64,000 nt of DNA. Source: Clostridia bacterium (GTDB lineage Bacteria > Bacillota > Clostridia > TANB77 > CAG-508). The notes under the pieces were generated by a model. It was not told where the DNA came from. It did not search any database and saw only the letters and a list, made by a program, of their open reading frames with translations. Location: the NCBI GenBank assembly GCA_016290095.1, contig JAEESU010000026.1:8573-72572 (forward strand). Reading direction: 5' to 3'. Of the stretch, positions 3,035-58,761 are shown piece after piece (the stretch's first letter is position 1; each line of letters starts with the position of its first letter). Position numbers and translations under genes: made by a program.

Positions 3035-5716
3035 TTAATCACTTTCAGATGTGTTTGATATACTATTAGTATTTGGTTCTGGTTCAGGATTTACAGTATT
3101 CGTTGGAACTGTATTAGTTGTAGTATTAGTATTTGGACCTGGTTCAGGATCTACAGTATTTGTTGGAACTGTATTAGTTGTACTGTTAGTATTTGGACCT
3201 GGTGTTGGAGCTACAGTATTAGTTGTATTTGTATTAGTTGTATTTGTATTAGCTGTATTTGTGTTATCATCTTTCTTTTCTTCTTTTGGCTTTTGATCTA
3301 CAAGTGGCCCTATATGAATATTACAGCTTTCAGTTGGTATATCTGTTATAGCTTCTTCTGGATTCATTGGTCTCCATATAGCATCTATTTCTTTTTCTGG
3401 TATTCCACCGATTGCCTTTTCTGTAACATTTTCAGCTGGGCAGAAATCTGTAGCTAATAAACCTGTCTCGTTACATATTCTAACTACAACATGACCTTCA
3501 CAATGTTCTGTAGGAATATTCTCTTTTGTAAATACTTCTGTATATGCATTTTCTCCACAAGCTTCTGAAGATAATTTACCAGATAATCTACATACTGATG
3601 CTCTTAATATTCCTTCTGGAACATCAAAATTCTTGTTTTCTAAATCCTGATGAACAGCTTTCATAACTGCTGCCCATAATTTTCCTGCTGGATTTCCATT
3701 ACTATAATGTACAACAGCACTATATTCATAACCATACCATGCTGCAGCAGAATAATATGGAGTATAGCCGCAAAGCCATCTATCATAATCTTTATTTGTT
3801 GTTCCTGTTTTAGCTGCTGTTTCTATTCCAGGCATTTTACAATAAGTAGCTGTTCCTGAAATAACTGGTTGTGTTAAGATATTTGTTTCTATATATGCAT
3901 TTTGTTCTGTCATTACTCTTGTTTTTTCTTGTTTTGGTTCATAAATTATATTACCTTTTGAATCTGTAACTTTTGTATAGAATGTTGGTGTAACATATTC
4001 ACCTTTGTTTGCTATTGCGCCATAAGCACTAGCCATCTCAAATGGAGAAACTCCATCTTCAATTCCTCCTAATGCTAATGATAAACCACTCTTAGAAAAA
4101 TCTGGTAATCCAACACTCTTACAAAATTCAACAGATACCTCTACGCCAATATTTGATAAAGCTTTAACATGTGGAACATTTGCAGAAACTTCAATCGCTT
4201 TACGCATATTGATTAATCCTCTATAATAATCATAATCTTTTGGATGGTATCCTCCTCCAAAATCTGTCCATACATCATTATAAACTGTTGCTCCAGTAAT
4301 TGTTCCAGTTATCAATCCTGGTGCAATAACTGATATAGGTTTCATACATGATCCTGTTTGTTTATTAATTTTTGTAGGATAATTCATAAAACCAAGTTTA
4401 GTTGTTGCTGTTCTTTCGTCTTTAGGTCCAACAGCTGAAGCTGCTGCAACAACATGACCATTGTGATAATCTATTATTGCCATAGATGGTAATGAATTTT
4501 CTTCTATTTTATTTTTCTCATTATCATAATATGTTCCTTTTGTATACCATGTTGGTTTTACAATTTCTTCTTCAAGTATTTTTTGAATATCTGTTTTTTG
4601 TGTAGTATATATTTTATATCCACCACTATATAATAACATTTCAGCAGTATCTCTGTTCATATCCTCATTGTTAGACTCTGTAATAATTTGATCAAGAATT
4701 TGATCTATTGCAGCAGCTGTTAAATATGATACATCTGTAGTAACAGAAGCGCTTTCTCCTTTTTCAAACTTTAATCCTTCATTTACTTCTGCAACTGCTA
4801 ATTTATATTGTTCTTCATTTATATATTCTAGTTCTTTCATCTTTCCAAGAACTGTCTTTGTTCTTTTCTTGATTAATTCATTATTCTTTTCTTTTTCTGC
4901 TGCTGGATCATTTTTATCTGCATAATCATAAAATGGTCTATATAGATTTGGAGAATGGTTTATACCTGCTAAATAAGCACACTCTGCAATACTTAAATCC
5001 TTTGCAGATTTATTAAAATAATAAACTGCTCCTAATTCAACACCATTTATATCGTCTCCACCCATGAATATTAAGTTTAAATATAACTCTAGAATTTGAT
5101 CTTTTGATAAATAATTTTCAACTTGGAATGCTTTTGAAATTTCTTTTACTTTTCTTAGAGCACCAGCAAAAGAACTTCTCTCTTTATCTTGAGTGATATT
5201 CTTAATAACCTGTTGCGTAATAGTACTTCCACCAAATTTAGAATTACCTCTGTGTAATACATATGTTAGCGTTGCATATACTGTTCTAGGAATATCAACA
5301 CCTCTATGTGAATAAAACCTTTCATCTTCTATTGCAACAAAAGCTTTTGGCAAGTATTCAGACATATCTGCCATACTAATACTCTTTCTCTTTGTTCCAC
5401 CACTTAAAATTGCAATTTGATTTCCGTCAGCATCAAAAACTGTAGAGTTTTCATGTCCTACAACTAATGTTGCTGGATCTATTTTTAATTCATCGCCAAA
5501 AATTCCTATAAAAGCACCTACTAAAACTCCTGTACCTATGATTAATAATAATATTAATGATAAAATGGTCCACTTAATAATTTTAGCTGCTTTAGGATGT
5601 TTATTTTTGAATTTACCTTTTTCTTTGTTTGATTTTGAGTTTCTATTTTTCCTTGTTCTATTCTTTTTCAAATCTGAAGTTTTTATTCTTCTTGTTTCGC
5701 TACTATCTTTACTCAT
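3035..5716 (-). CDS. Class A penicillin-binding protein (transglycosylase/transpeptidase) with a Thr/Asn/Pro-rich repetitive C-terminal tail
   Basis: It has an N-terminal basic segment plus a TM anchor, the GT51 motifs EDERFYSHRGVD and GGSTITQQ, a transpeptidase SxxK-type region, and is 893 aa long. Confidence 0.9.
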   Translation of the reverse strand: MSKDSSETRRIKTSDLKKNRTRKNRNSKSNKEKGKFKNKHPKAAKIIKWTILSLILLLIIGTGVLVGAFIGIFGDELKIDPATLVVGHENSTVFDADGNQIAILSGGTKRKSISMADMSEYLPKAFVAIEDERFYSHRGVDIPRTVYATLTYVLHRGNSKFGGSTITQQVIKNITQDKERSSFAGALRKVKEISKAFQVENYLSKDQILELYLNLIFMGGDDINGVELGAVYYFNKSAKDLSIAECAYLAGINHSPNLYRPFYDYADKNDPAAEKEKNNELIKKRTKTVLGKMKELEYINEEQYKLAVAEVNEGLKFEKGESASVTTDVSYLTAAAIDQILDQIITESNNEDMNRDTAEMLLYSGGYKIYTTQKTDIQKILEEEIVKPTWYTKGTYYDNEKNKIEENSLPSMAIIDYHNGHVVAAASAVGPKDERTATTKLGFMNYPTKINKQTGSCMKPISVIAPGLITGTITGATVYNDVWTDFGGGYHPKDYDYYRGLINMRKAIEVSANVPHVKALSNIGVEVSVEFCKSVGLPDFSKSGLSLALGGIEDGVSPFEMASAYGAIANKGEYVTPTFYTKVTDSKGNIIYEPKQEKTRVMTEQNAYIETNILTQPVISGTATYCKMPGIETAAKTGTTNKDYDRWLCGYTPYYSAAAWYGYEYSAVVHYSNGNPAGKLWAAVMKAVHQDLENKNFDVPEGILRASVCRLSGKLSSEACGENAYTEVFTKENIPTEHCEGHVVVRICNETGLLATDFCPAENVTEKAIGGIPEKEIDAIWRPMNPEEAITDIPTESCNIHIGPLVDQKPKEEKKDDNTNTANTNTTNTNTTNTVAPTPGPNTNSTTNTVPTNTVDPEPGPNTNTTTNTVPTNTVNPEPEPNTNSISNTSESD
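3062..3240. repeat. In-frame tandem repeat of about 57-60 bp, roughly 2.5 copies, inside the 3' end of the PBP gene
   Basis: The unit ggttcaggatNtacagtattYgttggaactgtattagttgta recurs. It encodes PNTNTTTNTVPTNTV(N/D)PEP units. Confidence 0.6.
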
Positions 5717-5811
5717 AAATCCTCCTTTGTTAAACGATATAATCCTATAATATCGTTTGTATTATATTACATTTCGTTAAAAATATAAAGCCCTTTTTTA
5801 TTATTTTTTTA

Positions 5812-6672
5812 TTAAAATATATCTTCTATTTTATTCAATATATTTGCACCTTCAAATAGTAAATAATTTGTGCCCTCTGATTGTTTTGAAGTTATATTTC
5901 CTGGTACTGCGTATATATCTTTTCCTTGATCTAAAGCATAATCAACAGTAATCAAACTTCCACTTTTGGATCCTGCTTCAACAATAATCACTTTTTTAGA
6001 TAATCCACTTATAATTCTGTTTCTTAGCGGAAAATGATATTTCATCGGCTTTGATCCCAAACAAAATTCAGATACAATTGTACCACCTTCTTTCAAAATT
6101 CTTTCAAATAGTTTTTTATTTTCATATGGATAAACTTCAAAGTCTGATATTCCTGTGCCAAGTACAGCAATTGTTTTTCCAATTTTACTATCAAGTGCAC
6201 CAAGATGAGCATATTTGTCAATTCCAATTGCTAAACCACTAACAATATTTATGCCTTTATCAGCTAATTCTTTTGCAATTTTTCTTGAAACTTTTTTTCC
6301 ATAGTCTGTTGCTTCTCTTGAGCCAACAATTGCTATATTGTCTCCATACAGATTTTGAATATTTCCCCTTACATATATATAGACTGGTTTATTACTAATT
6401 TGGTTCAAAATTGTTGGATAATTATTTTGGGTACATGAAATAATTTTAATATCATTTTTATTCATATAATCAATATATTTTTTCATATTTTTAAAATCAG
6501 AATTAAGTATTTTGTCAACTGTTTTTTCTTCAAATCCTTCATTTAGTAATTCACTTTTAGATTGCTTTAAAATTAATTCTGCACTTCCAAATTTTTTTAA
6601 TAGTTTTAATTTATTTTCATTACTTATATCAATTCTTGATAAATAAATATCATAATAATTCATATTTTTCAT
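5812..6672 (-). CDS. dprA: DNA processing protein DprA (Smf)
   Basis: The protein carries the DprA Rossmann-core motifs IAIVGSREATDYG, VSGLAIGIDKYAH and AVLGTGISD. Confidence 0.85.
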   Translation of the reverse strand: MKNMNYYDIYLSRIDISNENKLKLLKKFGSAELILKQSKSELLNEGFEEKTVDKILNSDFKNMKKYIDYMNKNDIKIISCTQNNYPTILNQISNKPVYIYVRGNIQNLYGDNIAIVGSREATDYGKKVSRKIAKELADKGINIVSGLAIGIDKYAHLGALDSKIGKTIAVLGTGISDFEVYPYENKKLFERILKEGGTIVSEFCLGSKPMKYHFPLRNRIISGLSKKVIIVEAGSKSGSLITVDYALDQGKDIYAVPGNITSKQSEGTNYLLFEGANILNKIEDIF

Positions 6673-6692
6673 AATTCATATTTTTCCTTTCA

Positions 6693-6731
6693 TAAAAAAA
6701 GAGCATAGATTTCTCTATGCCCCTAATATTT
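6693..6731 (-). terminator. Intrinsic terminator downstream of folD
   Basis: A GGGCATAGAGAAATCTATGCTC hairpin is followed by a T7 run on the minus strand. Confidence 0.5.
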
Positions 6732-6732
6732 T

Positions 6733-7578
6733 TTATAATCTTTTTTCAGCAGCTTTTACCAAATTATTTAATAGCATTGCTATTGTCATTGGTCCAACTC
6801 CTCCAGGAACTGGTGTTATATAGCTTGCTTTCTCTTTTACATTTTCAAAATCAACATCCCCACATATTGTTCCGTCTTCATTCCTGTTAATTCCTACATC
6901 TATTACTACACAACCATCTTTAACCATATCTTTTGTTACAAATTTTGGTTTTCCGATAGCTGCAATTAAAATATCTGCATTTTTTGTTATTTGATCAATA
7001 TTTTTTGTTTTTGAATGACATACAGTTACAGTTGAATTTTTAGCTAGCATGCATTGAATCATAGGTTTTCCAACAATATTGCTTCTTCCTAAGATAACTG
7101 CATTCTTTCCTTCTGTTTCAATATTGTATTCTTCAAACATTTTTATAATTCCATACGGTGTACAAGAAATAAATGCATCTTCTCCTATGCTTAAATTTCC
7201 AACATTAACCGGATTAAATCCATCAACATCCTTTTCTGGTGAAATATGTTTAAAAGCATTATTAATATTAATACTTTTGGGAACAGGACTTTGTAATAAT
7301 ATTCCGTGAATACTATCATCTTTATTAAGCTTATCAATTACTTTTAGTAATTCTTCTTCTGTTAAATCTTCGTCATATAAATACTCTTCAAATTCTATTC
7401 CAACTTTTTCACATGCTTTTGATTTGTTTTTTACATAAACAGTTGAACCTGGGTCATTACCAACCATAATAACTGCAAGTTTAGGATTAATTCCTTTTTC
7501 TTTTAGAACTTCCACTTTTTGTTTTAATTCACTTCTAATCTTTTTTGCAAGTTCTTTTCCATCAATTAATTCTGCCAT
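6733..7578 (-). CDS. folD: Bifunctional methylenetetrahydrofolate dehydrogenase/cyclohydrolase
   Basis: The protein begins MAELIDGKELAKKIRSEL, contains VIMVGNDPGS.VYVKNK, and is 281 aa long. Confidence 0.92.
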   Translation of the reverse strand: MAELIDGKELAKKIRSELKQKVEVLKEKGINPKLAVIMVGNDPGSTVYVKNKSKACEKVGIEFEEYLYDEDLTEEELLKVIDKLNKDDSIHGILLQSPVPKSININNAFKHISPEKDVDGFNPVNVGNLSIGEDAFISCTPYGIIKMFEEYNIETEGKNAVILGRSNIVGKPMIQCMLAKNSTVTVCHSKTKNIDQITKNADILIAAIGKPKFVTKDMVKDGCVVIDVGINRNEDGTICGDVDFENVKEKASYITPVPGGVGPMTIAMLLNNLVKAAEKRL

Positions 7579-7600: not shown

Positions 7601-8791
7601 TTATTTTTCTGTTTTCTTTTTATAAATAATGATTAATGAAGTGATAATTGCTATAGCAGTAATAACTGTAAATGTAATTACTGCTGGATTTATTCCAACT
7701 TCTGGTAAAACACCTACTTCATCTTTTATAATATTTAATACTTCTTCTTTTGAAACTTTATTTGAATCTTCAACTACATTTGTAACAGAATTATTCACAG
7801 TGTTATTTGCAACACTTGATACAGTGTTTTCTTCATCACTTGGTTTTTTAGAAGAAAGCAAACTTGTTAATACATATGCTGTCTTTCCTTTATATGTTAC
7901 TTTAGACCAGCCATTACTTCCTACACCTGTTCTTGTTATTTCTTCTCCTAACTTCAATGAGCCAACTTGTTCAGTATCTGTTGAATATCCTTCTCTTACA
8001 TTACAATTTCTTACTGCATACATTTTTTCATTTACATCTTTAAATGTAACTTCTTTCTCTTTTGGAGCAGTTGTTGATAAATACTGTGAAGAAACATAAG
8101 CAGTTTGTCCTTTATATGCAACTCTAGACCACTTATCACTAATACCTGTTCTTGTTAATTTAGTTCCTTCACTAATTTTTGCTATAACAGAGCTACTAGT
8201 TGAATAACTTTTTCTAATATTCAAATCATCTACTGTAGCATATACTGTTTCGTTAACATCTTTAAATGTAACTGTTGTAGTTGGTGAAGTATTTGTGTTA
8301 GTACTACTAGTATTTGTACTTGTATTAGCACTTGTGTTTGTGTTTGTATTAGTAGTTGTATTGTTTACTACATTGTTTTTTACTGTAGTTTCTTTTTCCG
8401 CAATATTAAAAGTAATTGAATTAGGTGGATCTATATGGTTGCTTTTTTTATCTGAAATCGTACAGTCTTCCACAGTAACTGTTGCCTTCCCTGCTGCTTT
8501 TGCAGTAAAAGAAGCAGTCATATTTCCAGGATGATTTTCTAAATCAGGATCCCATTTGATTAACATTCCGCTTGAATCTGTTGATTTATCACTATATGTA
8601 ACTTTAATTATACCTTGATAACCAATTGCATCGCTTGGAATATTAACTGTTACTGTATAATTACTACCTTTTACTACATCGCTCGAAACGCTAATACTCG
8701 CTTGAGAAGCATTAACATGATTGATTGTAAGTACATTATATAATGCTAACAAAATTAATAAAATTGCAATTATTTTTTTTATTACTCTCAT
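7601..8791 (-). CDS. Cell-surface protein with two bacterial SH3 (SH3b) domains, a TNT-rich linker and a C-terminal sortase-type sorting signal with the variant motif LPEVG
   Basis: It has a signal peptide, two repeats of the form FKDVNE..Y....C/DLN.R.....S...G.....T...TG....W..V.YKG.TAYV, and a C-terminal LPEVG followed by a hydrophobic stretch and KKKTEK. It lies immediately downstream of a sortase gene. Confidence 0.6.
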   Translation of the reverse strand: MRVIKKIIAILLILLALYNVLTINHVNASQASISVSSDVVKGSNYTVTVNIPSDAIGYQGIIKVTYSDKSTDSSGMLIKWDPDLENHPGNMTASFTAKAAGKATVTVEDCTISDKKSNHIDPPNSITFNIAEKETTVKNNVVNNTTTNTNTNTSANTSTNTSSTNTNTSPTTTVTFKDVNETVYATVDDLNIRKSYSTSSSVIAKISEGTKLTRTGISDKWSRVAYKGQTAYVSSQYLSTTAPKEKEVTFKDVNEKMYAVRNCNVREGYSTDTEQVGSLKLGEEITRTGVGSNGWSKVTYKGKTAYVLTSLLSSKKPSDEENTVSSVANNTVNNSVTNVVEDSNKVSKEEVLNIIKDEVGVLPEVGINPAVITFTVITAIAIITSLIIIYKKKTEK

Positions 8792-8819: not shown

Positions 8820-9485
8820 CTATTTTTCTTCTGCTTTTATAATAAGTCTTTCTGTTGAAGCACTTTCACATGTAATTAATGTAATTTCAACTTTATTCTC
8901 ATCTGGAATTAATGCTTCTAAATCTGTTGGCTCAACAGTTAATATATCTTTAACTTCATATTCTGTTTCAGAAAAATCTTTTTCTACAATTGTGATAATA
9001 TCTCCTTTGTCTAATTCGTTCAATTTTCCAAACATATTATCAAAATTATGCCCCGCTAAGCATAAATTTCCATAATTATTCAATGAACCACCATACAATT
9101 TAGAAATTCCCTTTTTTAATGCTTCTTCTTCAGTTGAATCTAATATGTATTGTTCAACATTTAGTTTTTTTATTTTTATCTTGCCTAATACTTTGTAACC
9201 CTCATATGTACTTTCCATAGCGATTGGTTCTGCAACAGTATTAGTTTGAACTAAATTCTCACTATTGTCTTTATTTGATCCTCTTGTTGATATAAATAAT
9301 GCAACTCCAACAATTACAATAATTGCAACTAAAGCACAAATAATTTTTATTTTAGTTATATTAGGTTCATCATCATATTCTTCGTAATATTCATCATTGT
9401 TTATATCGTTTTTTTCTTCTATTCTTTCGTTTTTTTGATCAAAGTAATATCCACCACCATCAGCAGAATGTTTTCCCTTTGCCAT
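8820..9485 (-). CDS. Sortase family transpeptidase
   Basis: It has an N-terminal TM anchor, the catalytic His in LAGHN and the catalytic Cys in the TLITC motif, and is 221 aa long. Confidence 0.8.
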   Translation of the reverse strand: MAKGKHSADGGGYYFDQKNERIEEKNDINNDEYYEEYDDEPNITKIKIICALVAIIVIVGVALFISTRGSNKDNSENLVQTNTVAEPIAMESTYEGYKVLGKIKIKKLNVEQYILDSTEEEALKKGISKLYGGSLNNYGNLCLAGHNFDNMFGKLNELDKGDIITIVEKDFSETEYEVKDILTVEPTDLEALIPDENKVEITLITCESASTERLIIKAEEK

Positions 9486-49316: not shown

Positions 49317-49721
49317 TCACAATATGTTTTTAAGAATCAATTCATCTTTCTGCTTAAAATGATTCAACCAATAAATAAATTCTTTTCCATTTATTAATGC
49401 CTGATTAAATTCTTGATTATTAGCATTTTCTTCAAGCATAATTAAACTACTTGTAACTTTCTCAAGTTCATCATGCTCAATATAATAAGATAAAATCTTT
49501 TCTTTTTCAAACCAGTCATTTTTTAGTTTCTCAATATTATTTTCATTTTCTCTTCTATATAATTTTTCTATTACTTCTTCAGCATCAGCAAAAATTAAAT
49601 CAACTATTTTATTTGTATAATTTACAGTAATAATTTCTAAAGCAACAATTAGAATAATTATAACACCAACTAATCCTATTTCTTTTTTTATTCCCATCTG
49701 TTTCCTTCCTTTTTCTGGCAA
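49317..49721 (-). CDS. DUF4363-like small membrane-anchored protein
   Basis: It has an N-terminal TM. It is paired with the upstream DUF421 gene, overlapping it by 34 nt, as is typical for YetF-type loci. Confidence 0.45.
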   Translation of the reverse strand: MPEKGRKQMGIKKEIGLVGVIIILIVALEIITVNYTNKIVDLIFADAEEVIEKLYRRENENNIEKLKNDWFEKEKILSYYIEHDELEKVTSSLIMLEENANNQEFNQALINGKEFIYWLNHFKQKDELILKNIL

Positions 49722-50371
49722 AAAATAGACCCATCACCATTAAGCACAACAACCAAAGCTTCTTCGGGCTTCATATTGAATTTTCCCACTTCTCTTTCTA
49801 ACCAACTATAATCCTTATTCAATTTTTCTAAATTCTCTAACATCACTTTACCATCAATAACCAAGTCATATGCAATTCCTTCATATGCTACATCTATATT
49901 AAAATCTTTCGGACATAAAGCTCTTTTTTCTGGCTTTAAAACTACACTTATTTGTCCGCTTGTCTCTAATATTGCAAATTCAACATCTCCAATATTACTT
50001 ATGTTATTAACTCTTAATCTTTCTTGCAATTCATTTATTGTAAAATTCTCATCAACCATTGCTTTTTCATCTATCTTGCCTCTATAAATCAAAATTTTCG
50101 GTTTACCACATATTATTTCTCTAATTTTTATGCTTTTTAAATTTAATATTGAAATAATAATATGCAACATTAACAAGCTTAAAATCGGTATAATTCCATA
50201 AAGAAGTGGTGTACCGATATCACCCATCGGAGTTGAAGCTAAGTCCGCGATCATAATTGCAATTACCAATTCAAATGGTTGCATTTGGCCAATTTCTCTT
50301 TTCCCCATAAATCTTATAACAAATAATACCAACACATATAAAATAATTGTCCTGACAAAAATTAAAAACAT
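49688..50371 (-). CDS. DUF421 (YetF family) membrane protein
   Basis: It has three N-terminal TM helices followed by a conserved soluble domain (ELQERLR...GDVEFAILETSGQISV). Confidence 0.6.
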   Translation of the reverse strand: MFLIFVRTIILYVLVLFVIRFMGKREIGQMQPFELVIAIMIADLASTPMGDIGTPLLYGIIPILSLLMLHIIISILNLKSIKIREIICGKPKILIYRGKIDEKAMVDENFTINELQERLRVNNISNIGDVEFAILETSGQISVVLKPEKRALCPKDFNIDVAYEGIAYDLVIDGKVMLENLEKLNKDYSWLEREVGKFNMKPEEALVVVLNGDGSIFCQKKEGNRWE

Positions 50372-54629: not shown

Positions 54630-54930
54630 ACTCCCTTTCTTATATTTTAATAAAAACAAAAAAGCTATTTCATCCTACATAGGACGAAATAGCTTGAAAT
54701 TCCGTGGTACCACCTAAATTAATTAATTATCGAAATTAATTCACTTATTTTTCTCTTAACGCGAGTAAACGAATTGTTTTACTATTAATTCAAACAATCA
54801 GCTCTAAGGTGATAATAAATAGTTTATTATCTTGCTAAACTTTCAGCCCATGATTTAGCTCTCTAAAAAAGTTTTACACTATTTACCTTGTCCTTTTCTT
54901 TGCTTTTATTTATTAATATAATAATCTTAA
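54630..54930 (-). promoter_or_regulatory. T-box riboswitch leader of ileS, with its promoter
   Basis: On the minus strand, the T-box consensus AATTTAGGTGGTACCACGG lies at 54702-54720, and a terminator hairpin AAGCTATTTCGTCCTATGTAGGATGAAATAGCTT followed by T6 lies at 54662-54695. A candidate specifier AUC-A sits in the stem I region. A TTGACA -35 and a TGtTAAGAT extended -10 lie at about 54925-54955. Confidence 0.75.
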
Positions 54931-54966
54931 CACCATTTACATAATTTTGTCAAGTTTTTTAATATA

Positions 54967-54994
54967 TAAAGAGGTGACCCGTATCTTACGATAC
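54967..54994 (-). terminator. Terminator hairpin after the ABC transporter gene
   Basis: The perfect palindrome GACCCGTATC-gtaa-GATACGGGTC is followed by a T-rich stretch on the minus strand. Confidence 0.5.
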
Positions 54995-55012
54995 GGGTCA
55001 AAGGTCTGTCAG

Positions 55013-56596
55013 TTAGATGTGTTCAGTGATCTCGATTTTTTCTCCGTTGTTTCTCATAATCCACATTTTGCCAACACGCTTGCTGACGATTTCTTTGTGA
55101 GTATGCGAAACAATAATAGCACAAGCACCAATATTTTCGATTATACTTTTGATGAAAGAAATAACGATTTCAGCATTCTGATCAGAAATATTTGACAAAA
55201 TTTCATCAAAGATGAGTAGCTGAGGCTTATCAGGAAAACGTTCATGAGTTTTTTCAGCCATATAGAGCATCTGGAGAGCAACTAGTCTTTGTAAATCTGC
55301 TGAGTTTAGTTGTTTTGTAATCTTTGCTTCATAAAACTCAGATTCAGATTCAGGTATACGGCCTGCGATTCCCAAACCACTCGCAAGTTTCCTAATAAGT
55401 TGGAAATCAACATTTCCATTGATGGAAAAGTTTTCCCAAAGTGTAGTACTAATTGCAGTTTTGGAATCGTACAAGATTGCTTCAGGAATGATGTCTTTGA
55501 TCAAGCGATTAAACCGACTCTTACCTGTTTCATTTTCGCCATCAAGCTGTACAATCATCCCCTTCTGGATGGTCAGGTCGCTCGAAATCTCATACCAGCT
55601 ATCAGGCCTATCAGGATGTTTCACATTTGCTGTAAAGCCTTTCTTTACCCTCAAGCCTCGTTCTGACAACTCAACATTTAGTCTCTGCTTCTCTTGCAAA
55701 TGCAGACGTTCAGATTCATCTCGAATTAGCTCACGCAGCTCCTTATCTCTCGAATACTTTATCATCTTTGTGACATCTTCAACGATGTTTCCAATGTCAT
55801 TTGCAAATGATAAGACGTACCCATATGCAGTAAAGATGATATAAGAATACGAATATGGAGTGCCATTAGTAATCTTAACTTCTGCAATAGCCCACATCAA
55901 TGCAACAAAGCAAACTACCTTAATCAACTCAGGAAGGAGCCTAAGTCCATTTTTCACAAGCTGAATGGTAATCTGTTTCCAGTAACTGCCCTCAACTTCA
56001 TGAAGTCTTTCTTCTAACACATTTGTTGATATCATGAACGAATTCGATAGCAGTTCTTGCCTTGTCTGAATGTTTGCTCCAACATTATCAGCTCTCTGCT
56101 GGAGTAGTCCTCTCCGAATACCGCAAACAACTCCAATTGCAAGCACCGAAATTGCTCCGATAATCTGCGGAACTGTCATGTCAACAATCTTCATAATTAC
56201 CACTGTATAAATCAGACTGATGACTGCCTGAATACTCTCAATAACTGTAGAAACTTTGGCATTCTCGTAATTGAATTTTCTAAGACAGATTTCTTTTTTC
56301 CCAGTTTGTATTACTCCATCAAAGCTTCTGAAGAAATTGATCTTTTGGACTTTGACAAGCCACATCTGAGAGAAAATAATCAGCAAAGTACATCCAATCG
56401 AAAGAGCGGTACTAGTAAGTCCAATTGTAAGATATCGATGCCACGCATCCATGTTTCCTTCCTGAACGCTCTTCTGAGATATAAGGTAATTGTAGTTCAG
56501 AATTTTCTCGATGACAACACAGCTGAAAAGCAGGAAGAACAGCATAATTAGCCGTTTTAGTCCCTTCTTTCCGAGAAATGCATAGTTTTTTACCAT
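55013..56596 (-). CDS. Fused ABC exporter (permease plus ATPase) with a degenerate signature motif
   Basis: It has N-terminal TM helices, Walker A GENETGKS, Walker B LLIFDE and an H-loop SHTH, and the LSGGQ signature is replaced by LNSAD. The gene is markedly more GC-rich than its flanks. Confidence 0.6.
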   Translation of the reverse strand: MVKNYAFLGKKGLKRLIMLFFLLFSCVVIEKILNYNYLISQKSVQEGNMDAWHRYLTIGLTSTALSIGCTLLIIFSQMWLVKVQKINFFRSFDGVIQTGKKEICLRKFNYENAKVSTVIESIQAVISLIYTVVIMKIVDMTVPQIIGAISVLAIGVVCGIRRGLLQQRADNVGANIQTRQELLSNSFMISTNVLEERLHEVEGSYWKQITIQLVKNGLRLLPELIKVVCFVALMWAIAEVKITNGTPYSYSYIIFTAYGYVLSFANDIGNIVEDVTKMIKYSRDKELRELIRDESERLHLQEKQRLNVELSERGLRVKKGFTANVKHPDRPDSWYEISSDLTIQKGMIVQLDGENETGKSRFNRLIKDIIPEAILYDSKTAISTTLWENFSINGNVDFQLIRKLASGLGIAGRIPESESEFYEAKITKQLNSADLQRLVALQMLYMAEKTHERFPDKPQLLIFDEILSNISDQNAEIVISFIKSIIENIGACAIIVSHTHKEIVSKRVGKMWIMRNNGEKIEITEHI

Positions 56597-56853
56597 AGGT
56601 CGTTTCCTCTCTTTCTTTTGTTCTAGTTATAACATTGATGCTGCCAAAATTGAGTAATGTGTGACCAATCCTTTTTTTCCTCCTTTCAAACAAGTATTTG
56701 AAATAAATCAGACTAGCAATTGCTAATTCTAATTATTCCATAAAGGATCACTAGTTTAATTATACCACACACTGCAGCACCTTTTCAAGTTATGTAAACC
56801 AATAATAGATACAAAAAATAGCAGTCATATTTTATATAACCGCTATTTTCGTA

Positions 56854-58086
56854 TTACATTACTCTTTTTATGCTATTTGCTGCTTTTTTTCCACTCGCTA
56901 TTGCTCTACATACATATGCTATATTATCACAAACATCTCCACCTGCATATACATTTGGAATTGATGTTTTTCCGTTTTCGTCAATTTTTAAGTATCCTTT
57001 TTCATTTAATTCTAACCCTTGTTGTTCTAGCATATTCTTATCTGGTTTTAATCCTATAGCAAAAATAATTGTATTTGCATCTTCAGTGTATCTCCTTCCC
57101 CCCTCTTTATCAACAGCTTTATTGTCAATTATTTCAGTTTCAATACAATTTACTGAAATTATTTTTCCATCTTTCTCATTAGCTGACTCCACTCTAACTA
57201 ATTCTTTAAAAATCACTCCATCAGAAATTGCATCATCTAATTCTATTTCTCTTGCAGGCATATGCTCTCTATCTCTTCTATATAAAATCTTTACAGTGTC
57301 TGCTCCCATTCGAATTGCTGCTCTCGCAGAATCCATTGCAACATTTCCCCCACCAATTATAACTGTATTTCCTAAATTTATTTTTTCTCCACAATGATAT
57401 TTTTTTAAAAATTCATCTGAGTCAAATATATTTGATGATTTTACTCCAAGATTATATGTAGATGATACTGGAGCACCAACTCCTAAAAACACACTATCAT
57501 ATTTTTCAGATAATTCTTTAATGCTTATATTCTCACCAAGTTTTTGATTCAAATAGAAAGTAGCTCCTAATGATTCTATTTTACTTATTATTCTTTCAAC
57601 TATTGATTTTTCTAGTCTAAAATCTGGTATTCCATATGTTAATAATCCACCTATTTCATTTTCTTTTTCATATATATCAACTTCGAATCCATCCAATAAT
57701 AATTCATATGCACATTCTAATCCGGAAGGTCCACTACCAACAATAGCAACTCTTTTACCATTTGATTCTTTTTTATCTTCAACAAATTTATAATTATTTT
57801 TTTCAGCAAATTCATTAACAGCTTTTTCTATTTTTCCTATGTGTGTCGGTGTAAATTTAATTCCTCTTATACAATTTCCTTCACATTGTTTTTCTTGAGG
57901 ACATACTAAACTACATATATGTGAAAAAATATTATTTCTATGTAATATATTAAATGCTTCTTCATAATTATCTGACTTTACTTCTTGAATAAACTCTGGA
58001 ATATTAGTTTTCATTGGACATCCTTGGCTACATGGTTTATTCTTGCAATTAAAACACTCTTCTGCTAGTTTTTTTATATCTTCCAT
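56854..58086 (-). CDS. GltD-family NAD(P)H-dependent oxidoreductase (glutamate synthase small-subunit-like)
   Basis: It has N-terminal Cys clusters (CKNKPCSQGCP and CPQEKQCEGNC) and two dinucleotide-binding motifs (VAIVGSGPSG and VIIGGGNVAMD). Confidence 0.8.
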   Translation of the reverse strand: MEDIKKLAEECFNCKNKPCSQGCPMKTNIPEFIQEVKSDNYEEAFNILHRNNIFSHICSLVCPQEKQCEGNCIRGIKFTPTHIGKIEKAVNEFAEKNNYKFVEDKKESNGKRVAIVGSGPSGLECAYELLLDGFEVDIYEKENEIGGLLTYGIPDFRLEKSIVERIISKIESLGATFYLNQKLGENISIKELSEKYDSVFLGVGAPVSSTYNLGVKSSNIFDSDEFLKKYHCGEKINLGNTVIIGGGNVAMDSARAAIRMGADTVKILYRRDREHMPAREIELDDAISDGVIFKELVRVESANEKDGKIISVNCIETEIIDNKAVDKEGGRRYTEDANTIIFAIGLKPDKNMLEQQGLELNEKGYLKIDENGKTSIPNVYAGGDVCDNIAYVCRAIASGKKAANSIKRVM

Positions 58087-58092
58087 ATTTAC

Positions 58093-58761
58093 CTATCTTT
58101 CTGAGATTTCAACAACCTCATCAACATCATTTGATTTTGCTATGCTTGCAATTACTGCATTTGCATCTGCTCTATCTTTATATCTACTTAATAATCTTAT
58201 TGCACCATTTTCAATTCTTATCTTTACAATTTCTGTATGATATGTTTCTAGTATCTTTCTAACTTCATCAATTACTTCTTTAGATTTATTTGTTTTAATG
58301 CTTAAATCTAAAATACTAAAATGATCAAACTTATCTGAAAAACTTCTAAAGTTTTTTAAAACCACAAATACTATAATTGTAGCAATTATAGCTCCTATAT
58401 AATCACCAGCTCCAACAGCTAGACCTACACCCGCTACCGCAAGCAATCCTGCTGCTGTTGTTAGTCCTCTTACATTAAATCCATCTCTTAAAATTGTGCC
58501 AGCACCCAAAAATCCAATTCCAGATAAAAACTGTGCTGGTATTCTAGTAGGATCAGCACCTGTGTTATTATAAATGTATTCCCCACAAATCGTTACAAGA
58601 GTTGCACTGATTCCTACTAAAATGTGTGTTCTAAATCCAGCTGGTTTGTTCCATGCTTCTCTTTCGTATCCTATAATTCCTGATAATAGTACTATTAATA
58701 ATAATTTAAACAGTGTATTAATTTCATTTACAGCTAATAGTGTATTTATTACTTCAATCAT
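58093..58761 (-). CDS. mgtC: MgtC/SapB family membrane protein
   Basis: It contains GYEREAWNKPAGFRTHILVG and a C-terminal ACT-like domain. Confidence 0.85.
   Translation of the reverse strand: MIEVINTLLAVNEINTLFKLLLIVLLSGIIGYEREAWNKPAGFRTHILVGISATLVTICGEYIYNNTGADPTRIPAQFLSGIGFLGAGTILRDGFNVRGLTTAAGLLAVAGVGLAVGAGDYIGAIIATIIVFVVLKNFRSFSDKFDHFSILDLSIKTNKSKEVIDEVRKILETYHTEIVKIRIENGAIRLLSRYKDRADANAVIASIAKSNDVDEVVEISER

Follow-up and report, generated by a model that had tools for sequence, protein, structure and literature searches.

ATP-binding cassette (ABC) exporters are defined by an LSGGQ signature motif and a Q-loop, and much has been learned about the coupling of ATP hydrolysis to transport from heterodimers in which one site is degenerate. 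The gene described here, X, is an open reading frame (ORF) of 527 amino acids at 55013-56596 on the minus strand of a 64-kb stretch of DNA from a Clostridia bacterium (contig JAEESU010000026.1; the whole stretch analysed is called the window below), and it is the sole substantial ORF of an interval that had been flagged in an earlier, sequence-only reading. We consider it fairly probable that X represents an old, foreign and self-contained cassette that has been selectively kept and that encodes a homodimeric exporter of the type IV fold with non-canonical ATP sites.

Among described systems, X is predicted to work most like a homodimeric type IV ABC exporter (formerly “type I exporter”), the class that includes Sav1866, MsbA, McjD and the PCAT1 core, and to be a member of no described family. 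It resembles these half-transporters in domain order, in size (~530-580 amino acids), in its six long transmembrane (TM) helices and two long cytoplasmic loops, and in the presence of Walker A and Walker B motifs, a catalytic Glu and an H-loop His. It differs from them in a sequence identity of 12-17%, the absence of a Pfam match, LNSAD in place of LSGGQ, the lack of a Q-loop Gln, a shorter helical subdomain, an insert before Walker B, an SNxS D-loop and a QKxVQxG....W motif.

Heterodimeric ABC exporters with one degenerate ATP site are also known (PMC12038006, PMC7610611). TM287/288, TmrAB, BmrCD, EfrCD and MsRv1273c/72c share their fold with X, and one chain in these pairs has a catalytic side that is intact alongside a signature that departs from the consensus (PMC12038006); several such degenerate-site structures are among the best fold matches of X. 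Each of these heterodimers, however, is encoded by a pair of adjacent genes and retains one fully canonical site in all cases, whereas X is solitary and a homodimer of it would have two non-canonical sites. In a literature search the signature motif of X was not mentioned, with discussion only of heterodimers carrying a single degenerate site. As an insertion, the X locus shares with ordinary horizontal islets its anomalous composition, an empty site in a relative, and patchy homologues in varied neighbourhoods, while differing from them in that it holds one gene with its own regulatory signals, carries no mobility gene, tRNA target or clear flanking repeat, is old, and is shared by no fewer than five diverged lineages. 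Taken as an islet, it is an unexceptional horizontal acquisition, albeit an old one.

Predicted fold, motifs and family of X

An AlphaFold2 model of X, built on an 11-sequence family alignment, has a predicted local distance difference test score (pLDDT) of 82 and a predicted template modelling score (pTM) of 0.68. The protein consists of a six-helix transmembrane domain (residues ~1-300) followed by an ABC-type nucleotide-binding domain (~308-527). Hydropathy and the positive-inside rule place the N terminus inside and give six helices, with Lys/Arg-rich segments at the N terminus and in the loops 82-123 and 161-219. Foldseek searches with the model yielded full-length matches to type IV ABC exporters (E 1e-11 to 1e-9, TM-score 0.5-0.6), including the PCAT1 core, TmrAB, MsbA, BmrCD, TAP, HlyB, McjD and Sav1866, over 560-600 aligned columns at 12-17% sequence identity. 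X is thus predicted to have a half-size type IV ABC exporter fold. The protein starts 15 residues before TM1, and no C39 peptidase domain was detected in it with Pfam.

In order to map the motifs, the C-terminal domain of X was aligned with canonical ABC ATPases that were retrieved in the profile search and confirmed as such. The features located in this way are as follows.

55517..55540, minus strand: Walker A, GENETGKS, residues 353-360; K359 invariant in 21/21 family members
55295..55309, minus strand: LNSAD, residues 430-434; aligns with the LSGGQ of canonical nucleotide-binding domains
55202..55219, minus strand: Walker B, LLIFDE, residues 460-465; D464 and E465 invariant in 21/21 members
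55103-55105, minus strand: H-loop His498 (VSHT); H498 invariant in 21/21 members

Together, the model, the Foldseek matches and this alignment bear out what the sequence-only reading had proposed, a fused permease-ATPase with Walker A/B and an H-loop. At the signature position, N431 is invariant in 21/21 members and A433 and D434 are kept in at least 85%, and LNSAD is followed in X by LQRLVALQ, where canonical domains have LSGGQ followed by (R/K)QRVAIAR. Just after Walker B lies the D-loop equivalent SNIS, in which N469 is invariant in 21/21 members and which takes the form SNxS in the subgroup of X. The Q-loop Gln is missing in all family members, the aligned positions reading YDSKT, YNSRT, YNDHT and similar, and the family alignment contains no conserved Gln between Walker A and the conserved E-N pair (N389). 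The helical subdomain of X is ~19 residues shorter than the canonical one, and ~10 residues are inserted before Walker B. In the membrane domain, a conserved QKxVQxG....W lies at the outer turn between TM1 and TM2 and Y248 lies at the outer end of TM6; these residues point to a conserved extracellular gate or binding surface, the motif itself not identifying a substrate.

None of this could be recognized from standard domain libraries. The Pfam search for ABC_membrane (PF00664) and ABC_tran (PF00005), proposed with the sequence-only reading as a check on the exporter assignment, gave no match to either on X, only SMC_N at E = 0.4, and the identity of the protein is seen only through structure prediction and profile alignment. 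NCBIfam matches to X were all sub-threshold (13-24 bits) and confined to the segment from Walker B to the H-loop. PADLOC and PHROGs gave nothing above threshold for X, only generic matches in the Walker B region, among which the weak PADLOC match is to mad3 (E = 3.5e-4, residues 451-500). Searching the family profile against PDB sequences yielded weak matches covering Walker A only.

Relatives of X were represented by 11 matches among 5.8 billion protein clusters, at 40-63% identity, and a search of the X profile against 1.84 billion representatives returned 21 below 1e-30, followed by a gap to generic ABC proteins at ~1e-8. The family is thus very rare, and all its members come from metagenome assemblies. 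No relatives were found in viral contigs, JGI metagenome contigs, phage records or plasmid records, the matches in plasmid records being only generic rhizobial ABC ATPases at 24-26% identity. Across the 21 members, which extend down to 24% identity, the residues Q45, G47, W52, G159, G163, P222, Y248, K359 and N389 are invariant, as are A405, G407, N431, Y445, D464, E465, N469 and H498, and every member carries a family signature of the form N-[STG]-[AG]-[DE]. The altered signature is thus a conserved, derived trait of the family and not a product of decay. The sequence-only reading had LNSAD replacing LSGGQ as a degenerate motif; the replacement stands, but the word degenerate is misleading for a motif that is conserved family-wide in a gene whose ratio of nonsynonymous to synonymous substitution rates (dN/dS) is ~0.12.

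The searches also turned up proteins with partial similarity to X. P0030 (228 amino acids) consists of an N-terminal SHMT fragment (Pfam, residues 2-162) and 77 C-terminal amino acids that match X residues 449-525, and is either a truncated X remnant beside glyA or an assembly or gene-calling chimera. P0035, P0038, P0041, P0054 and P0084 (540-610 amino acids) give weak matches to the X profile and to ABC_tran and none to ABC_membrane; more poorly modelled divergent ABC exporter-like families may exist.

The cassette and its genomic contexts

X is the only gene of an insert between the gltD-like gene and ileS. The features of the insert and its borders, from the gltD side to the ileS side, are listed here.

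56854-58086: gltD-like gene (Fer4_20 and Pyr_redox_2 domains)
54954..56853, minus strand: whole inserted cassette, ~1.9 kb; absent at the empty site of the relative L017
56814..56850, minus strand: AT-rich hairpin directly after the gltD stop codon (terminator scan: 17-pair stem, then a T-run; inverted repeat)
56759..56788, minus strand: predicted X promoter, TTGAAA, 18-nt spacer, extended -10 TGnTATAAT; 11/12 consensus positions
56679..56753, minus strand: conserved 5' untranslated region (UTR) element, 75 nt, from the alignment of four lineages
56597..56678, minus strand: variable spacer, ~80 nt, with a working Shine-Dalgarno AGAGG (56610-56606), from alignments
55013..56596, minus strand: X coding sequence, 527 amino acids, from the ORF list
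54975..55000, minus strand: intrinsic terminator of X, TGACCCGTATC-ttac-GATACGGGTCA, the palindrome seen in the sequence-only reading
54924..54953, minus strand: ileS promoter, TTGACA, 18-nt spacer, TAAGAT; marks the right boundary of the cassette
54677-54909: ileS T-box leader (Rfam RF00230, 118 bits)

The location of the islet between the ileS T-box promoter and the gltD-like gene, as originally described, was confirmed by Rfam, the promoter scan and the domain calls. The hairpin at 56814-56850 looks like the terminator of gltD and is among the DNA missing in L017. L005, L009 and L014 retain the X promoter, and L008, a distant homologue, retains part of it (GTTTACATAATTGAA...TATAAT). An in-frame TAA was read in the sequence 33 nt upstream of the X ATG.

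The 5' UTR element contains a palindrome, TTAGCAATTGCTAG (56726-56713), and a hairpin of the form TTTCAAA-n6-TTTGAAA, TTTCAAATACTTGTTTGAAA (56703-56684), which abuts GGAGG (56683-56679). It is near-identical in four lineages (the window, L005 at ~7040-7115, L009 at ~4880-4960 and L014 at ~2055-2135) in which synonymous sites are near saturation, and is far better kept than the X coding sequence (59-65% amino-acid identity). The hairpin and GGAG are present in L008 as well, where this GGAG serves as the Shine-Dalgarno at a distance of 9 nt from the ATG. The homologues L001 and L008 are without the variable spacer (compared at L001 7400-7428 and L008 960-1003), and in the window's clade a variable spacer of 55-85 nt with a second Shine-Dalgarno separates the start codon from the conserved GGAG, an insertion that is not accounted for by any conserved upstream ORF. 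No Rfam family matches the element, and its covariation is insufficient to establish a folded RNA; either an operator or a regulatory RNA would be conceivable. We also considered a leader peptide or an attenuator for this region and rejected both, there being no short ORF conserved past the upstream GGAG and no Rfam match.

At the other end of the gene, the terminator has an 11-bp perfect GC-rich stem with a folding energy of -19.6 kcal/mol (z = -5.4). This palindrome had been correctly noticed and slightly misplaced, at 54969. A strong hairpin is found at the same place in every homologue (L005, L009, L014, L016, L001 and L008; z -3.5 to -6.8), each time with a different sequence. As the place of the hairpin is constant and its sequence varies, the conserved feature is the structure and not a sequence-specific site. 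The ileS -35 hexamer follows ~20 nt beyond the X terminator, and the spacer of the ileS promoter in the window differs from that of the empty-site relative L017.

The ORF list shows no second gene and no mobility gene encoded in the insert. No integrase, transposase or tRNA target was found at the insert, and a search for flanking direct repeats or an att site found none. The one candidate for an insertion scar is the 12-mer TTTACATAAYTT, which occurs in only two copies in the 64-kb window (0.32 expected; 4/100 shuffles reach two), in inverted orientation and bracketing X, at 56787-56798 in the X -35 region and at 54936-54947 in the ileS promoter spacer. L005 has the same pair (6994-7005 and 8831-8842), and the empty-site L017 is without the ileS-side copy. 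The pair could be the remnants of terminal repeats, a site shared by a regulator, or chance.

More distant X homologues (24-45% identity) reside in unrelated neighbourhoods, giving ~7 independent contexts overall. In L001-L004 the homologue lies between an HTH_3/DUF2975 pair and hydrogenase genes; in L008 it lies between ClpC and a gene that resembles a histidine kinase, an assignment made by eye from the C-terminal residues; in L012 and L013 it follows a PG_binding_1 gene; and in L019 it is found among unknown genes. In every context X is solitary and has its own strong 3' hairpin of differing sequence. Across these other hosts its GC content at third codon positions (GC3) is 0.19-0.54, and it is always GC-richer than its flanks (23-28% GC). 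L008 carries a GTTTACATAA…TTGAA promoter motif, hairpin and GGAG like those of the window's clade. As it shares these promoter and UTR features despite different neighbours, the comparison suggests that the unit that moves runs from promoter through terminator.

A conserved partner gene was sought among the neighbours and rejected, since these vary, the two small proteins near X in L012 and L019, alike at first sight, are not significantly similar, and PG_binding_1 is found only in the related pair L012/L013. The 64-kb window contains no second gene for a Walker A or LSGGQ-type protein, and X has no ABC gene as its neighbour in any of the homologous loci. The earlier description of a gene with no cognate partner left behind was accurate in that X is a single gene without a partner. 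It also implied a loss, yet X is solitary in ~7 contexts with its own promoter and terminator, and it appears to be built as a stand-alone unit.

L001 (2365-4921) and L002 (4930-7495) contain an identical X homologue (P0008) and differ in the genes a few kb upstream. These differing genes adjoin acetyltransferases and a toxin-antitoxin-like NTP_transf_2/HEPN pair, so that a segment close to X is variable in that lineage.

Composition and history at the gltD-ileS site

The GC content of X is 38.4% and that of the stretch 54969-56700 is 38.5%, compared with 28.1% for the remainder of the window, and X is the highest-GC 1.6-kb stretch of the entire 64 kb. The windowed GC analysis shows that the values previously estimated by eye, ~40% and ~27%, were right if slightly generous. 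With a GC3 of 0.379, X stands far from the 40 other ORFs of at least 200 amino acids in the window (mean 0.133, standard deviation 0.026, maximum 0.246; z ~9.4). At the first and second codon positions its GC content (GC1 0.46, GC2 0.31) is similar to that of its neighbours. As the anomaly resides at synonymous positions while GC1 and GC2 are ordinary, amino-acid composition does not explain it.

Other departures in composition were noticed within the window. The DUF421/YetF-family ORF (49688-50371, minus strand), a milder outlier, has the second-highest GC3 in the window, 0.246 compared with the mean of 0.133. In 300-bp windows, GC peaks of 0.41 at 62700-63000 in an SPFH/SHOCT ORF and of 0.38 at 58350-58650 in an MgtC ORF were seen; these are probably due to amino-acid composition, the GC3 of both ORFs being normal. 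Within X, antisense ORFs of 118 and 141 amino acids on the plus strand are an expected by-product of the higher GC content.

The gene order gltD-X-ileS is found in four further lineages, L005, L009, L014 and L016. Among the five X-bearing lineages, amino-acid identity is 89-95% for ileS, 71-75% for gltD, 67-77% for the sortase and 59-65% for X (80% between L014 and L016). L017 has the empty site, and with ileS 90.6% and gltD 69% identical to the window it is at the same distance as the X-bearing relatives. In a blastn comparison of L017 with the window, the two homology blocks end at window positions 56878 and 54933; the intervening DNA measures 49 nt in L017 and ~1.9 kb here. The ileS -35 hexamer in L017 lies 8 nt after the gltD stop codon (region L017 1686-1726), with no terminator between, so that gltD transcription would be expected to run into the ileS T-box leader; in the X-bearing lineages two predicted terminators would insulate ileS from gltD. 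The suggestion that the locus might be missing in relatives was therefore borne out at this exact site by L017, but four other lineages carry an orthologue there. In a search for more empty sites, the gltD-like protein matched only 35-36% identical proteins in the genome contig collection.

The synonymous divergence (dS) of the flanking genes between lineages is ~0.7-1.3, and X is at least as diverged. Its dN/dS is 0.12-0.13 where dS was computable, and its ORF is intact in all full-length copies examined, indicating that X is under purifying selection. Synonymous GC/AT patterns of X were fitted by likelihood with a two-state model on a star tree, a weakly informative approach, which gave a per-lineage synonymous retention factor of 0.39-0.43. 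For gltD, an identity of ~0.49 at four-fold sites corresponds to a retention of ~0.41 under F81. As the value for gltD equals that for X, X was in place before the five lineages separated. If X is decaying towards the host GC3 of 0.13, the fitted ancestral GC3 is ~0.6, and incomplete amelioration is a plausible and simpler reading of the present composition. The claim of horizontal acquisition thus keeps its support in the foreign composition and the empty L017 site, but five lineages share the insertion site and the event was neither recent nor at the level of a strain.

Two calculations were set aside. A parsimony count of GC-to-AT versus AT-to-GC changes proved to be biased, as the gltD control gave 0 vs 53, and was replaced by the likelihood fit. 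A GC/AT-only two-state estimate according to which a single old acquisition would be impossible was dropped, as the F81-type calculation at four-fold sites shows such an acquisition to be feasible. In L005 the gltD-like gene (5687-6926) is called as two ORFs of 34 and 365 amino acids, which suggests a frameshift or an assembly error, and in L009 a scaffold gap, seen as a run of N (8396-8473), interrupts ileS.

Competing explanations and meaning

In the explanation that we favor, a monocistronic cassette made up of promoter, conserved 5' UTR, coding sequence and terminator would have passed from a GC-richer donor into a Firmicute lineage that is AT-rich and encodes Spo0A, inserting itself after the gltD stop codon and ahead of the ileS promoter at a time before at least five of the sampled lineages radiated. 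Spo0A_C, a sortase, the T-box and a GC content of 28% suggest a host of the endospore-former type among the Firmicutes. The cassette would thereafter have been inherited vertically under purifying selection, with only partial amelioration of its composition. The product, presumed to be a homodimer as are half-transporters of this fold, would act as an ATP-driven exporter or flippase, and each composite site would combine the Walker A, Walker B and H-loop elements of one subunit with the N-S-A-D helix cap contributed by its partner. Homodimerisation, ATPase activity, transport direction and substrate are inferred here.

Several points weigh against this explanation. The insertion bears neither mobility genes nor clear target-site repeats, the searches turned up no donor lineage of matching GC, and the clade is unrooted, such that loss from L017 and gain in the ancestor of the others are not separable. 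A stationary GC3 of ~0.32 fits the data slightly better than amelioration to 0.13, by 2.1 log-likelihood units. In ABC transporters that have been studied, loss of the signature Ser/Gly and of the Q-loop Gln cripples hydrolysis or coupling. As both ATP sites of a homodimer would be without a canonical signature and Q-loop Gln, classical ATP-driven export by X is not assured.

The other explanations were weighed on the same evidence. If X were a decaying ABC gene, a pseudogene in the making with eroding motifs, its non-canonical signature, its missing Q-loop Gln and the absence of a Pfam match would all follow. The same unusual residues, however, are invariant in 21 sequences down to 24% identity, the predicted fold is confident, and the conserved signature, a dN/dS of ~0.12 and intact ORFs in all full-length copies examined exclude gene decay, to which we attach practically no credence. 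A recent, strain-specific islet, with X left over from a system for peptide, bacteriocin or immunity export after its partner genes had disappeared, would agree with the foreign composition and the empty site in L017, and PCAT1, McjD and HlyB are indeed among the top fold matches. Against this, orthologues occupy the same site in four lineages with flank dS of ~0.7-1.3 and X equally diverged, which largely refutes a recent origin. The role in peptide, bacteriocin or immunity export put forward in the sequence-only reading found no support either, as X has no C39 peptidase domain and no Pfam match, no precursor, accessory or immunity gene lies beside it in ~7 independent contexts, and PCAT1, McjD and HlyB score no better than MsbA, TmrAB and BmrCD; this combined explanation is very unlikely. 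It is doubtful, too, that the GC3 of X is no fading foreign mark but is held up by some force acting on this gene in particular, for example selection in favour of rare codons that throttle or pace the translation of a membrane protein. Every member examined is GC-richer than its AT-rich host, X remains at 0.35-0.38 in four long-separated lineages, and the likelihood preference for a stationary ~0.32 given above goes in the same direction. That preference is weak, however (roughly p = 0.04 in a crude star-tree two-state model), and amelioration fits with an ancestral GC3 of ~0.6 and the same retention factor as the flanks; the family range of 0.19-0.54 is as expected from differing residence times, and the empty site and multiple contexts show that X moves.

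Two further explanations concern how the protein works. X might be one half of a heterodimeric exporter, with an unlinked partner supplying the canonical LSGGQ, as in TM287/288, TmrAB, BmrCD and Rv1273c/72c. That X keeps the catalytic Glu and His alongside a non-canonical signature is the pattern of one chain in such pairs (PMC12038006), but the known pairs are adjacent genes and X is monocistronic with its own promoter and terminator. There is also no second Walker A/LSGGQ-type protein in the 64-kb window and no ABC gene beside X in homologous loci, and the need for a specific host partner would hinder the spread of a cassette that is found in unrelated contexts; we judge a hidden partner unlikely. 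X might instead be no transporter at all, but an ABC-fold sensor, regulator, ATP-gated channel, or anti-phage or abortive-infection effector controlled by nucleotide binding. The signature, Q-loop and D-loop, the elements of the ATP sandwich and of coupling, are all altered family-wide, and solitary, mobile, rare genes in variable regions are typical of defence, with X in L001/L002 lying near the NTP_transf_2/HEPN pair and the weak PADLOC match to mad3 (E = 3.5e-4) as further hints. As that match spans the generic Walker B region only, no homologue is found in phages, plasmids or viral contigs, the invariant catalytic Glu and His argue for hydrolysis, and the membrane domain is predicted to be a complete six-helix exporter fold, a function outside transport is likewise improbable.

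In addition to the exporter explanation that we favor, we raise the tentative and rather unlikely proposal that the X family constitutes a distinct mechanistic class, in which homodimers with N-[ST]-[AG]-D at both sites and no Q-loop Gln would use a different trans-contact or a different ligand or mode of coupling, and in which a single-gene cassette would be spreading among AT-rich gut Firmicutes with its atypical codon composition kept. The insert serves as a caution for genome scans, as the strong GC3 anomaly seen here belongs to a gene that is old and vertically inherited and not to a recent transfer. The family is invisible to Pfam and NCBIfam and consequently goes unannotated in metagenomes. 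With the catalytic Lys, Asp-Glu and His kept under purifying selection, and with the signature rewritten and the Q-loop Gln dropped at what in a homodimer would be both sites, the X family offers a natural test of which motifs are indispensable to an ABC exporter.

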